Origin: Eledone cirrhosa
Lineage: Eukaryota
Assembly (NCBI GenBank): GCA_964016885.1
Contig: CAXHJY010001105.1
Span: 395,547-459,546, forward strand
Reading direction: 5' to 3'
DNA length: 64,000 bases
Shown here piece after piece: positions 40,601-53,884 of this stretch. The translations under genes were made by a program, and so were the position numbers. The notes beneath the pieces were generated by a model. That model searched no databases and was not told the DNA's origin. It worked only from the letters and a program-made list of their open reading frames with translations. Numbering within the stretch: position 1 is the first letter of the stretch; each line of letters starts with the position of its first letter.

Positions 40601-41580
40601 AGTCAAGGTAGCACGTGACGAAGAAACAAGATGATGCAATTACATGAAGTGTATTAGTTTCACGCTTGGAGGAAGAATGAGTTCCATATTTCTTTTGAAT
40701 GAAACATTTCTAGTCCTGTAGAAGCCATTACCATATTAAACGTGATATATATATATGTGTGTGTGTGTGTGTGTGTGTGTGTGTGTGTGTGTGTGTGTGT
40801 GTGTGCGTGTGTGTGTAAACATACATATACAAATATATATTCATATTTCAACAGATATTCAAAAATAGCCGCCTCAGCCATTTCGTGGACGGTCGCGGAG
40901 CCCTGGGCAACTGGATGTCCTACGTCAATTGTGCCAGACACAAATCCGAACAAAATCTCGTTGTGGTCCAACACGAAGACGATATTTTCTACGAGGTTTC
41001 CCGTGACATTCACAACGGAAACGAACTTCTTGTCTGGTATGGTGACAACTACATGCAGTTCATAGGAATTCCGGTCACGTTACACGACGCTTCCGATTCC
41101 GACACCGAACTCTCGCGAGACGAAACCGAAAGTAAGAGCTTCATTGTTATTGTTGCTGTTGTTGCTATTATTATTATTAATATTCTATTGTTATTAATAT
41201 AGGGGGGCGGTGGATTGGCAATATCGGTAGAGGGTCGGACGCCATGCTTTGCAGCATAGAGTTACGGCCCTTTATAATCTGAGTTCAAATCCCGCGAAGG
41301 TTAACTTTGCCTTTCATCCTTACGGGGTCGATAAAATAAAGTACCAGTAATACACTGGGATAATTGCTGGCGTTGTGCCAAAAGTAGAAACAATTATTAT
41401 TAATATATGAATGTTAAAGTAGTGACAAGGTCACTTACTTATTCTCGGCAAAAAGAATGGGAGTGATCGACAGTCCTGTTTCTCGCTCGTTAGTGGTTAT
41501 CAAGTATACTTACTCCTTCGCTTCTGCCGACAGTTATAGGAGATGGATTCTTATAGTATTCCAGTAATGTTTAAGAGCAC
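40601..41580 (+). repeat. Inverted duplication of 50818-51794
   Basis: Near-identical reverse complement including the exon, splice sites, SINE and unique intron sequence. Confidence 0.93.
40855..41131 (+). pseudogene. Antisense duplicate of the PRDM14 PR-domain exon
   Basis: 277 bp with AG/GT intact. Four substitutions versus 51276-51552: G>S, M>I, G>D and one silent. Confidence 0.85.
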
Positions 41581-41647
41581 ACACACCCACACACACACAC
41601 ACACACACACACACACACACACACACACACACACACACACACACACA

Positions 41648-41999
41648 AATAACAGGGGACACAAGCTCTCCTATCCTGACTTGCTGGCTACTGCCATGGT
41701 GTCACCTCTGAGGCTGTGTCACCACTAGTGTCACTAATAACAGGGGACACAAGCTCTCCTATCCTGATGTACTGGCCACTGCCATGGTGTTACCTCTGAG
41801 GCTGTGTCACCACTAGTGTCACTAATAACAGGGGACACAAGCTCTCCTATCCTGATGTACTGGCCACTGCCATGGTGTTACCTCTGAGGCTGTGTCACCA
41901 CTAGTGTCACTAATAACAGGGGACACAAGCTCTCCTATCCTGATGTACTGGCCACTGCCATGGTGTTACCTCTGAGGCTGTGTCACCATTAGTGCTCTA
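41648..41999. repeat. 88-bp tandem repeat, 4 copies
   Basis: aataacaggggacacaagctc.. starts at 41648, 41736, 41824 and 41912. Confidence 0.92.
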
Positions 42000-42076
42000 G
42001 AAACCACAGTCACTAATAACAGGGGGCACAATTATATACACACATCATTATATACACACATCATTATATATACACT

Positions 42077-42255
42077 TGGCAGTATCGGTAGAGGGTCGGC
42101 CGCCATGATTTGACGCATAGAGTTACGGCCCTTGCCATTCTGAGTTCGAATCCCGCCAAGGTTAACTTTGCCTTTCATCCTCACAGGGTCGATGAAATAA
42201 AGTACCAGTAATGCACTGGGTAATTGCTGGCCTTGTGCCAAAAGTACAAACAATT
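42077..42255 (+). mobile_element. SINE (family of 45851-46036)
   Basis: Same head and core. Confidence 0.75.
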
Positions 42256-50138: not shown

Positions 50139-50468
50139 CACACCACTCCCTACTGTCTTAAATTTAGAAAACACATATCCACTATGAGGTTACTAAACCT
50201 GCTAGAAACAGCAGCTAACTCTCCCCCATATCACACCCCTCCCCACATCACTCCCTACTGTCTTAAATTTAGAAAACACATATCCTCTATGAGGTTACTA
50301 AACCTGCTAGAAACAGCAGCTAACTCTCCCCCATATCACACCACTCCCTACTGTCTTAAATTTAGAAAACACATATCCTCTATGAGGTCACTAAACCTGC
50401 TAGAAACAACAGCTAACTCTCTCTCATATCACAACCCTCCCTACTGTCTTAAATTTAGAAAACACACA
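50139..50468. repeat. ~91-bp tandem repeat, about 3.3 copies
   Basis: ctccctactgtcttaaatttagaaaacaca.. occurs four times. Confidence 0.85.
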
Positions 50469-51275
50469 GACAACCATGCAGAACAACTCCATCGCAGCTC
50501 TGTTGTTCGGCTGGCATCGTCTACGCGCGTGTTGCGCAAGTACTGTGAAACAATAAATTTCAACACTTTTTTGCACAGAGATAATATCCATAGGCGAAAC
50601 TACAATTGTCACTGCTGGCGCAGCTCATGCTTCCAGGTCTGCAATTCATTCACCCAGTACCTATCAGACAAAAAAGTGCTGCCATAAAATGGGTGGTGCA
50701 ACCTAACTTTGGTATCGGTCGTACAGAGGTCAGCGGCCGAATGAGGGAGTGGGATGGCGCTAGCTGTCAGTCCATTCTCTGCCTGTTTGTTATATATATA
50801 TATATGTGTGTGTGTGTGTGCTCTTAAACATTACTGGAATACTATAAGAATCCATCTCCTATAACTCTCGGCAGAAGCGAAGGAGTAAGTATACTTGATA
50901 ACCACTAACGAGCGAGAAACAGGACTGTCGATCACTCCCATTCTTTTTGCCGAGAATAAGTAAGTGACCTTGTCACTACTTTAACATTCATATATTAATA
51001 ATAATTGTTTCTACTTTTGGCACAACGCCAGCAATTATCCCAGTGTATTACTGGTACTTTATTTTATCGACCCCGTAAGGATGAAAGGCAAAGTTAACCT
51101 TCGCGGGATTTGAACTCAGATTATAAAGGGCCGTAACTCTATGCTGCAAAGCATGGCGTCCGACCCTCTACCGATATTGCCAATCCACCGCCCCCCTATA
51201 TTAATAACAATAGAATATTAATAATAATAATAGCAACAACATCAACAACAGCAACAATAACAATGAAGCTCTTAC

Positions 51276-51552
51276 TTTCGGTTTCGTCTCGCGAGAGTTC
51301 GGTGTCGGAACCGGAAGCGTCGTGTAACGTGACCGGAATTCCCATGAACTGCATGTAGTTGTCACCATACCAGACTAGAAGTTCGTTTCCGTTGTGAATG
51401 TCACGGGAAACCTCGTAGAAAATATCGTCTTCGTGTTGGACCACAACGAGATTTTGTTCGGATTTGTGTCTGGCACAATTGACGTAGGACATCCAGTTGC
51501 CCAGGGCTCCGCGACCGTCCACGAAATGGCTGAGGCGGCCATTTTTGAATAT
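51276..51552 (-). CDS. PRDM14: PRDM14 exon, PR/SET domain C-terminal part
   Basis: acag|IFKNGRLSHFVDGRGALGNWMSYVNCARHKSEQNLVVVQ..ELLVWYGDNY..ETE|gtaag. 277 bp, phase 0-1. Confidence 0.95.
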
Positions 51553-53884
51553 CTGTTGAAATATGAATATATATTTGTATATGTATGTTTACACACACAC
51601 ACACACACACACACACACACACACACACATATATATATATATATATATATCACGTTTAATATGGTAATGGCTTCTACAGGACTAGAAATGTTTCATTCAA
51701 AAGAAATATGTAACTCATTCTTCCTCCAAGCGTGAAACTAATACACTTCATGTAATTGCATCATCTTGTTTCTTCGTCACGTGTTACCTTGACTTATATA
51801 GATATATATATATGTATATATATATATATGTATACATATGCACACACACACACACATATATATATATAATAGCAAAACCGAGGAAGTTCGTTTAGTTCAT
51901 ATGTAAACGAAACTTTCTCGTTTTTACCAATATATACACCCTGCCTGTGTATAGAATGTTAGTTCTAGTACCAACACTAGTATTTCATTGTACTCACACA
52001 CTATATATATATATATATATATATATATATATATATATATATATATATATATATATATATATTTATATATATATATATGTAAGCAATGTGTTATTTAATT
52101 TGTTGGTTATTCAACAAAATTAGTTTATAACAAATTAGAAGCACTCTACAGTTTTCTTTTGGAGTATAATATCAATAATATTAATAAATGGAAACTATCT
52201 TTATAAAACCATATTTATTTTATTATATATATATTTCAAGGGTACCAAACAGAACTTAAAACGCTAAGTTCTAGTTTTGAATATGTCACTATCTGTAAAA
52301 CAACTTTTATATTTTATCTGATGAGTACGTACCAAAATAAATATGGTTTTATAAAGATAGTTTCCATTTATTAATACTTTTGATGTATATATATATATAT
52401 ATATATATATATATAGAGAGAGAGAGAGAGAGAGAGAGCAAACATCACGGGCGCTCTATCTCAAAATTATTTTTGAAAAGCATTAGAAATGCGCAACCGG
52501 TAAAACTTAAAACAAAACTGAATACTAACCAATACTATTACTAATTTTCACTTATTCCTAATTAAACTATTTTTCACTGTGAACAATTTGTCAGCATTTT
52601 CTTTTCCGTTTGCCAATATATATATATATATATATTATACTTGGGGAGGGTCATATTGTTGTCATAATATTGCCAGAATTAATAACAGAACACACTCACT
52701 GTTTGGTTGGTTTTCGCTTCTGTATCTTTTATATCAGATAATTTATTTGGTCCTCAATGTTTACCATTGACTGACCAACGGTCAAATATACAGATATAAT
52801 ATAGACACAAACACACATATATAGTCTAACAAAGTTCTTTCGTTGCACATCTGCAACATCGTCAGTGGTGCTATTATGTTTCCTCCTCTTGTATTGTATG
52901 TCTACGCCATCTTTATTTAATCAGTTTATCTATTTATTTATTTATTTATTTTTGATTTATTTATTTTTGTCTTCTATATAGTTACCTGAGTGGGATATCG
53001 TATTACGTAAGAATATATATATATATACATACACACACACATATATATATATATATATGTATATATATATAAATATGGTATGACAGGTCGCCCTCGAGTG
53101 CTACTGGTAACATGTAACGCAGGTCAGGTCGTCGGTGACTAAACCAGCAACCCTACCCAGCTTGCTTGATGAGGAGGGCGATATTTGGACACCCTGACTG
53201 TTCATACCTCTGTTGATTCCTTGAAATATATATGTATATAAAGAGTATATATATATATATATATATATATATATATATATATATATATATATATATATAA
53301 ACGAGTAGGACCCCGACGGCAGAGCTCAAGCCGTTTCGACGGCTAATTCTGGACTAAAAATTAGCCGTCGATACGGCTTGAGCTCAGCCATCGGTGACCT
53401 ACTCGTTCATATTACCCACTCTACTACCCTAAGTATTGAGTACTTTGGTGCGTTATGGTCCATCTGGTTCCTTACCACATTTCCTTCGTTATATATATAT
53501 ATATATATATATATATGTGTGTGTGTGTGTGTGTGTGTGTGTGTGTGTGTGTGTGTGTATGTCTATAATATTATTGAAATTTGCTGAAATTTTGTGAATA
53601 GGCATCAAATCTTGTCATTTACCTATGGTTTAAATTTCATATAAATCGAAGGGTAACAATTTCCAGCAGGGTTTGTGCCCCCGGGGAACCCTTTGATTAA
53701 AATGAAATATACTTATCCAAGTACCCTGGGCAATGTAGTTTCAGAATATATGTGGTTATGGGGGGTCTATCTCCAAAACCATAGAAGGAGTTCGTGAACA
53801 AACAGACAAACAGACAGGAACTACAACTACAATATATATATATATATATATATATATATATATATATATATATATATATATATA

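Follow-up and report, generated by a model that had tools for sequence, protein, structure and literature searches.

Results

The 64,000-nt stretch of Eledone cirrhosa DNA that we analyzed (the window) carries on its minus strand an intact Prdm14-like gene, with reading frame and splice sites unbroken over 346 codons (Table 1). The 277-nt PR exon scores above the cut-off for PF21549, the zinc-finger exons map in order against homologues, and the homologue matches bear PRDM14 names in 9 of 11 cases (one of the other two is hypothetical and one unnamed). On the basis of domain, homologue names, and exon order, we assign the gene to the Prdm14 subfamily, with a PR/SET domain followed by C2H2 zinc fingers; the gene identity and the cephalopod context of the original prediction both hold. 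A search with residues 1 to 94 of a homologue found no N-terminal exons in the window, which stops at the contig end. The same genome has a second Prdm14 gene, a paralogue on C1. Our literature search, which covered few subscription journals, returned nothing on Prdm14 paralogues in molluscs or PRDM14 in cephalopods, and the accessible text of PMC4760075 does not cover mollusc Prdm14 paralogues.

TABLE 1 Features of the Prdm14-like gene, the inverted copy, and associated repeats (window positions)
Feature	Positions	Strand
Most upstream coding exon found, 3' part only	60693-60753	-
Exon, first half of PR domain, 161 nt	56910-57070	-
Exon, second half of PR/SET domain, 277 nt (mod 3 = 1), AG/GT	51276-51552	-
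Source segment: PR exon, ~470 bp of downstream intron, ~315 bp of upstream intron	50805-51868	-
First zinc-finger exon, 130 nt, in loop between arms, oriented as rest of gene	43033-43162	-
Inverted copy of PR exon and flanking intron; exon sense on +, antisense to pre-mRNA	40555-41590	+
Pseudo-exon, copy of 277-nt PR exon; AG/GT intact, frame open	40855-41131	+
High-copy SINE-like repeat (label inferred) carried within copy	41206-41397	
Dispersed repeat end adjoining left junction, inverted to family copy 52080-52241 near source	40397-40556	
Next zinc-finger exon, 127 nt; the copy-bearing intron ends at its 3' splice site	38985-39111	-
Zinc-finger exon, 111 nt	37906-38016	-
Zinc-finger exon, 169 nt	28879-29047	-
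Last coding exon, to about the stop codon	18396-18463	-

The second intron downstream of the PR exon contains an inverted copy of that exon. The original prediction described 40601-41580 as a near-identical reverse complement of 50818-51794 that includes the whole 277-bp exon, both splice sites, and flanking intron. Alignment confirmed this pairing, with one block (40817-41577 versus 51590-50821) 98.2% identical over 770 columns and another (40586-40744 versus 51809-51651) 97.5% identical. The core pair stands, but its left edge had been set too short, as the copy extends ~45 bp further left, to ~40555. Exon mapping agreed that the copy lies two introns downstream of its source and that the pair brackets the first zinc-finger exon. 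The splice signals AG and GTAAGA are kept in the copy, and the PR exon sequence matches only two places in the whole assembly, the gene exon and the copy.

The left end of the copy is a compound (TA)/(TG) tract from ~40555 and the right end a (CA)n tract near 41590, both common to the source. The limits of the copy are approximate because its ends run into these tracts, and microsatellites are dense enough in the region that microhomology at the junctions is weak evidence. Next to the left junction, a 160-bp inverted match (40397-40556 versus 52241-52080) could be taken as part of the same copying event. This was ruled out: other genomic copies are equally close (95%), and the block is more diverged than the core (6/159 versus 7/910; Fisher P = 0.007). 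The dispersed repeat is likely older than the duplication, judging by these comparisons, and possibly served as a homology anchor for it. The source of the SINE-like repeat within the copy, 51001-51190, has further inverted partners at 45851-46041 and 42076-42258. The gene span holds 22 inverted pairs or palindromes of at least 100 bp, 3 of which are blocks of the copy/source pair.

How unusual is such a pair? We surveyed 809.5 kb of this genome for inverted pairs of at least 300 bp and at least 95% identity within 30 kb. Nineteen were found, five of them at least 500 bp long. The other four pairs in this longer class comprised three genome-wide repeats and one with three copies inside the sample (a within-sample check only); a C23 pair that looked single copy in the sample turned out to be a repeat family. 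By this survey the copy/source pair is the only single-copy-derived inverted pair of at least 500 bp in the ~810-kb sample and so is uncommon, with no other such copy shown in the remaining 745 kb surveyed. Beyond human-diagnostic papers, our literature search, with its few subscription journals, found no work matching inverted exon copies with skipping or editing.

The copy is ~99% identical to its source, with 7 substitutions in 910 positions over the whole arm, a 9-bp indel, and different microsatellite lengths. Four of the differences fall in the 277 exonic nucleotides and give the copy G5S, M70I, G81D, and one silent change. The gene holds the ancestral residue at all three amino-acid sites: Argonauta has G, M, and G, Gly5 is kept in 123 of 124 homologues, and position 70 is Met or Leu in 124/124. 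Thus, all three amino-acid changes arose in the copy. The values of pN (0.014) and pS (0.017) between copy and exon, from four changes only, suggest that the copy decays like unconstrained DNA, although a role for the RNA is left possible by this comparison, since an element that acts only by pairing also shows neutral change at the protein level. An excess of substitutions in exon over intron was rejected (4/277 versus 3/633; P = 0.21).

It had also been argued that at three of the four exonic differences, where the gene has G and the copy A, pairing would persist as G-U. The count is as described. The argument is post hoc, however, and of the 7 substitutions along the whole arm only 3 leave a G-U pair, the others giving G-G, A-A, A-G, and A-C. 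As a signal of selection, this enrichment lies within chance (at least 3 of 7, P = 0.15 to 0.47; at least 3 of 4 exonic, P = 0.03 to 0.13).

Could the copy be an assembly artefact, in which the exon region's second allele was inserted in reverse into the intron? In favor of this, the contig is small (459,546 bp) and rich in repeats, with the gene at its end; a divergence of 0.8% is compatible with alleles; and among the public records compared none crossed a junction. Such an allele would, however, need G5S and M70I at conserved sites, and the insert is bordered on each side by flanks of its own, in a contig without an N gap. Among the public runs matching the exon, 7 were listed and no RNA run was one of them, a result silent on expression. 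Public data were compared over 40300-41600 in 4 of these 7 runs, a region with no single-copy control, so that depth is no guide to copy number. One public contig over the exon is a mosaic: at the 9-bp indel its length is that of the copy, at 40867 its letter apparently is too, and at 41064 and 41096 it shows the gene's letters (A>G). The copy's letters thus exist in raw data. Bin means imply a second contig, at a depth of ~2.3, over ~41014-41102. Over the exon, two RAD runs gave no reads and a second organism's contigs no depth, gaps that prove nothing. The presence of letters of both copies in one public contig set argues against an assembly error, although a contig with both letters fits alleles too and its sample may be the assembly's own source. 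We regard an artefact as very improbable.

Staggered breaks are known to leave inverted duplications at breakpoints. The pair could mark the breakpoints of an inversion, or it could cause the 9-kb segment to invert or undergo gene conversion repeatedly, and a conversion tract over 41031-41096 could underlie the mosaic contig. The bracketed zinc-finger exon, 43162-43033, is nevertheless collinear with all other exons and with the homologues, so the segment is not inverted here and a present or staggered-break inversion was rejected. An inverted allele would also lose the 130-nt exon, truncating the protein. The ~9-kb inversion originally suggested is possible in principle, with the exon in its normal orientation in this assembly, and a DNA-level role of this kind seems highly unlikely.

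We then considered the RNA. Exon and copy are complementary at 273 of 277 positions by Watson-Crick pairs plus 3 by G-U, and their predicted duplex has an energy of -567 kcal/mol, compared with about -83 to -85 for each strand alone. The core duplex is near-perfect (~760 bp with 5 substitutions), and the core arm is predicted at -1,465 kcal/mol. Editing of human Alus decays over a length scale of 800 nt, and across gene segments it is weaker (PMC4066801, accessible text). The exon lies 10,145 nt from its copy in unspliced RNA, although the human decay scale may not be that of an octopus. The loop between the arms is 9,220 nt unspliced and 2,031 nt once the 8.1-kb upstream intron is removed. 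The arm is transcribed 1.7 kb before its own intron can be spliced, so exon and arm always share one molecule for a while.

As originally claimed, skipping 277 nt or 277 + 130 nt shifts the frame, and translation of the skipped forms gave stops after 22, 7, or 54 new residues. By these translations the products are truncated and probably NMD bound. An in-frame isoform lacking the PR domain, made by skipping one or both exons, was rejected, as every case gives an early stop; the frame is kept only by skipping three exons (534 nt), the third of which lies outside the arms.

Discussion

The copy is real and is probably an inert, young templated insertion. We consider it reasonably likely that the PR-exon region was copied, most plausibly by template switching in DNA repair or replication, into the inverted segment, and that this segment is now decaying and has little effect on the gene. 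An accident is favored because both ends lie in dinucleotide microsatellites, intron was copied too, and the amino-acid changes are in the copy. It is not a retrocopy, since intron is included and the direction is reversed. The second Prdm14 gene and the many other inverted pairs in the gene also count for an inert copy. On the other side, such copies are uncommon, and this one spans a whole exon with both splice sites. Its duplex is far more perfect than that of an Alu pair and its host is an ectotherm, two reasons why the distance rule from humans may not hold here, and three of the four exonic changes keep pairing (P of about 0.03 to 0.13).

In templated insertions of the MMBIR, polymerase-theta, or SDSA type, as here, nearby DNA is copied inverted, intron included, with junctions in short shared repeats; the nearby source (9.2 kb away) and the junction microhomology are both seen at this locus. 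The exact pathway is not readable from sequence. The present insertion is ~1 kb and germline, and the yeast and cancer cases include much shorter events (PMC11724301 and PMC8421209, in part). A possible course is that the (TA)/(TG) tract near 40555 broke, or a fork stalled there, and that the resulting end primed on the inverted microsatellite ~11 kb away, perhaps helped by the neighboring repeat copy. About 1 kb would then have been copied before a return at the (CA)n tract near 41590. The copy drifted afterwards, as observed in its three derived amino-acid changes, 9-bp indel, and changes in microsatellite length. On the pre-mRNA the copy is antisense to the exon and could pair with it in silico. 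The partner would arrive 10 kb of transcription later, and pairing is predicted in a minority of transcripts, with low, unselective editing at most.

Alternatively, the copy could be a new editing-complementary sequence (ECS) or splicing switch that pairs across the 2-kb loop after removal of the 8.1-kb intron, leads to ADAR recoding or to skipping and NMD, and is kept by selection. The full exon and both splice sites are covered by the strong predicted duplex, and editing would alter the encoded residue at 58 of the 75 exonic A positions scored. Coleoids recode heavily (PMC5625713), Prdm14 is neural in fish, amphioxus, and Nematostella (PMC10415408), and inverted intronic Alus can pair and alter splicing (PMC2533698), as far as the accessible parts of these papers go. 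Divergence below 1%, however, leaves little time for selection, four of the seven substitutions break pairing, the distance between arms is long, and skipping never yields an in-frame PR-less protein. A near-perfect 277-bp duplex is expected to be edited without site selectivity, unlike classical recoding partners: the GluA2 Q/R and Drosophila para ECSs are short, imperfect, conserved, and site selective. Like these intronic ECSs, the copy lies in a downstream intron and is complementary to a coding exon, but it is long, near-perfect, and young, and lacks the short imperfect duplex that selects particular adenosines. Hyper-editing is also rare in coding sequence, in a count that left octopus out (PMC5625713, in part). 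The editing or switch role first proposed is left unsupported, the G-U argument being post hoc, the copy decaying, its ends resembling repair junctions, and its spacing long relative to human Alus. We hold such a role to be unlikely.

Inverted Alu pairs in primate pre-mRNA, which are associated with hyper-editing and altered splicing, also form an intramolecular inverted repeat near splice sites within one pre-mRNA. Here, in contrast, a coding exon of a single-copy gene forms one of the arms, the arms are ~99% identical, and their spacing of 9.2 kb, reduced to 2.0 kb by one splice, reaches or exceeds the distances at which Alu editing fades (PMC4066801 and PMC2533698, accessible text). The copy resembles hairpin endo-siRNA loci in that gene sequence has been duplicated in inverted orientation and could be a source of long dsRNA, although here the two strands would have to pair in cis, within the pre-mRNA of the gene itself, with 9 kb and two splice events between them. 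Drosophila hpRNAs and mouse oocyte pseudogene hairpins are endo-siRNA loci born by inverted duplication.

The copy could instead be a mildly harmful, polymorphic knock-down allele, acting through hyper-editing, retention, small RNAs, or skipping and buffered by the paralogue or the other allele. The second Prdm14 gene and the strength of the duplex in silico agree with this, and the mosaic contig is compatible with variation between alleles or with unequal copy number. With three derived changes in 277 bp, however, the copy seems to have persisted for long, which is hard for a harmful allele, and the gene's frame and splice sites are intact throughout. This explanation appears quite unlikely.

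If the copy is inert, it is one more structural variant, with a practical consequence for mRNA reads: A-to-G at 40867, 41064, and 41096 would appear in any that were assigned to the copy by mistake, mimicking editing. There is a small chance that we see an editing partner caught at birth, one local inverted duplication having brought an entire coding exon of a neural transcription factor into a 277-bp duplex, with octopus ADARs recoding the PR domain or tuning the gene via skipping and NMD. Inverted exon copies would then be a one-step route to new recoding clusters in coleoids. If edited, the locus would offer a natural experiment, with a date attached, on the origin of editing partners for coding exons in the animals that recode most, and would also inform how far a near-perfect duplex reaches across splicing. 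The control would come from comparing alleles or species that carry the copy with those that lack it, making the locus usable as a natural test of the origin of editing partners.

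RESULTS

A Prdm14-like gene carries an inverted copy of its PR-domain exon

Our analysis favors a real, uncommon, and young inverted pseudo-exon, which was probably acquired as a templated insertion and probably has little effect. Homologue mapping placed the coding exons of the host gene on the minus strand; AG/GT edges flank each of the six internal exons, and 346 open codons can be counted from the 57070 exon. The homologues carry the name PRDM14. No 5' exons were found in the window, which stops (60693-64000 side) where the 459,546-bp contig stops, so part of the gene may lie on another contig. 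At the protein level, the PR exon shares 87% identity with a protein of Argonauta and 53% with an Octopus bimaculoides PRDM14-like protein, which equals a locus on sequence C1 of the assembly letter for letter across this exon. This animal is therefore an octopod that has two Prdm14-like genes. The second (G000:C1:305726836-305727069, locus L084) encodes a PR exon protein identical to O. bimaculoides XP_014777866.1, and the paralogue in the window is the one close to GAB1599632.1 of Argonauta; two PRDM14-like proteins also occur in several molluscs. A 65-bp unit, repeated 134 times with 96% matches, makes up an 8.7-kb satellite that fills most of the last coding intron.

Features of the Prdm14-like gene and of the inverted pair
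Feature	Position	Strand	Basis
Coding exon	~60753-60693	-	homologue mapping
Coding exon (upstream PR exon)	~57070-56910	-	homologue mapping
Coding exon (PR exon)	51552-51276	-	homologue mapping
Coding exon (zinc-finger)	~43162-43033	-	homologue mapping
Coding exon	~39111-38985	-	homologue mapping
Coding exon	~38016-37906	-	homologue mapping
Coding exon	~29047-28879	-	homologue mapping
Last coding exon	18463 to stop	-	homologue mapping
Copy of PR exon	40855-41131	+	
First inverted block	40817-41577 vs 51590-50821		window self-comparison
Second inverted block	40586-40744 vs 51809-51651		window self-comparison
Satellite	19544-28258		

The original prediction of an antisense copy of about 1 kb was borne out by two inverted blocks (98.2% and 97.5% identical), separated by a (TG)/(TA) tract whose length differs between gene and copy. 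With microsatellites excluded, 7 substitutions in ~910 bp and one 9-bp indel distinguish the arms, a count that omits two further mismatches at the microsatellite edge. Four of the 277 exonic positions differ (gene to copy: GGC to AGC, CTA to CTT, ATG to ATA, and GGT to GAT). The PR exon matches only two places in the 3.0-Gb assembly, the gene and the copy; the upstream PR exon matches once.

Could the copy be an assembly artefact? Of seven matching sequencing runs listed, none is recorded as RNA. We compared four of them with 40300-41600; exon coverage came from X1, a public sequencing-run contig set, and not from the RAD runs or the second organism. One X1 contig of 442 letters (depth 9.15) spans 40849-41232. 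It differs from the copy at three letters, which are those of the gene (41031, 41064, and 41096), with no gap, whereas the gene sequence would have to show four different letters there plus a gap of 9 bp. At the indel, the contig thus agrees with the copy in length, and the letter count implies that it matches the copy at 40867 too. Because it is a mosaic, letters of both gene and copy exist outside the assembly, which argues against an artefact, a reading that we consider unlikely. The fraction of the gene exon's words present is 0.96 in each of the three runs of X1's sample, a hint at a mosaic that is stable and not random. Such a mosaic could stem from variation among copies that is allelic, from a conversion tract, or from another individual. 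Minor variants are lost in contigs, and the assembly itself may have been made from X1's sample. None of the listed pieces of the four runs over 40300-41600 crossed a junction of the copy.

Junctions and frequency of inverted copies

The copy's left end lies inside a compound (TA)/(TG) tract from ~40555, which mirrors the tract at 51795-51868, and its right end inside (CA)n at 41578-41647, which mirrors (TG)n at 50805-50820. A 160-bp repeat end, inverted relative to a family copy at 52080-52241, adjoins the left end. Because other genomic copies match this repeat end equally closely and it is 5-fold more diverged than the core of the inverted pair (P = 0.007), the repeat is likely older than the duplication. 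The repeat pair may have aided a template switch, an origin that the junction anatomy would suggest.

How common are such pairs in this genome? A repeat-masked survey of 809.5 kb (all of sequence C1132, 200 kb of C5, and 150 kb of C23) for arms of at least 300 bp and at least 95% identity within 30 kb yielded 19 inverted pairs, 5 of them at least 500 bp long. Apart from the PR-exon pair, three of the four pairs of that size are dispersed repeats (~40 copies each among the matches listed), and the remaining one has three copies within the sample; nearly all bases of the 14 shorter pairs match several places within it. As the other large pairs are repeats or multicopy, single-copy-derived inverted copies are uncommon, with an upper bound in this sample of ~4 per Mb, at which many per genome are still possible. 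Duplexes built from repeats are frequent: within the gene span there are 22 inverted pairs or palindromes of at least 100 bp, and only the PR-exon pair overlaps an exon. That this pair has inversion roles is unlikely.

Near-perfect palindromes of 180-570 bp in the window (7887-8456, 36970-37232, 43310-43673, 44407-44801, 53892-54075, 54179-54504, and 63314-63536) are likely fold-back or MITE-type elements; one of them (43310-43673) is upstream of the 3' splice site of the zinc-finger exon, at a distance of 150 bp. A 705-bp repeat family (C23:10016731-10017435 and 10023711-10024421; loci L070 and L071) occurs mainly on C22, C23, and C25; its copies often form inverted pairs separated by 5-7 kb, a layout that suggests a DNA transposon with long terminal inverted repeats. 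At C1132:275258-279613 (L016, L017), a 1,683-bp element occurs as an inverted pair; many chromosomes carry copies of it at 99% identity, which marks a very young mobile family. The young fold-back element at C5:50093597-50095520 (L058) has two perfect inverted arms of 783 bp with 359 bp between them; copies at 99-100% occur throughout the genome, some of them likewise paired. C1132:164966-197940 is an array of four 4-kb and 1.2-kb blocks (99-99.8% identity).

Decay of the copy and predicted pairing with the exon

The residues of Argonauta at the three changed codons are Gly, Met, and Gly; position 5 is Gly in 123 of 124 aligned homologues, and position 70 is Met or Leu in all 124 (of 126 stored proteins). 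The copy is thus where all three amino-acid changes occurred. From only 4 changes, pN was 0.014 and pS 0.017, and an open frame is expected to survive 4 random changes 85% of the time. The copy is a pseudo-exon without visible protein constraint, a measure that does not bear on a pairing role.

Could the copy instead be an active editing or splicing element? We consider this unlikely. In silico, exon and copy form a very stable duplex. In the pre-mRNA, the seven arm substitutions give 3 G-U, 1 A-C, 1 A-G, 1 A-A, and 1 G-G. The three exonic G-U pairs that had been predicted are present, but over the whole arm the G-U share is within chance: if 20-35% of substitutions are assumed to yield G-U, at least 3 of 7 arise by chance with P = 0.15-0.47 (at least 3 of 4 exonic, a subset picked after the fact, P = 0.03-0.13). 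Distance argues against the role. Transcription reaches the complement of the exon 10,145 nt past the 3' end of the exon; removal of the upstream intron shortens this distance to 2,031 nt. The intron carrying the copy becomes spliceable 1,744 nt further on. Among human Alus, average editing decays with an 800-nt scale, to a level ~20-fold lower at a distance of 2,400 nt, and is less strong if the partner sits in another gene segment (PMC4066801). Edited intronic Alus have a same-intron partner 682 bp distant on average (PMC2533698), young repeats are the main editing targets (PMC9989829), and coding sequence is seldom hyper-edited (PMC5625713). These yardsticks, however, come from other animals and from less perfect duplexes. 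A weak negative is that our literature search found no report of this locus or of editing partners that are inverted copies of exons.

Skipping leads to stops after 22 (PR exon), 7 (zinc-finger exon), or 54 (both) new residues, all upstream of further junctions, in agreement with the prediction that loss of 277 or 277+130 nt breaks the frame; any splicing effect would thus be loss of function. A buffered knock-down allele is a candidate reading of the copy that we regard as rather improbable.

The neural role of Prdm14 in other animals (PMC10415408) speaks for an editing or splicing element and would put the window gene where ADARs act. Editing at 58 of 75 scored exonic adenosines would alter the amino acid. 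Long perfect duplexes are edited unselectively, and if the exon and its copy do pair, such editing would harm, not tune, the conserved PR domain.
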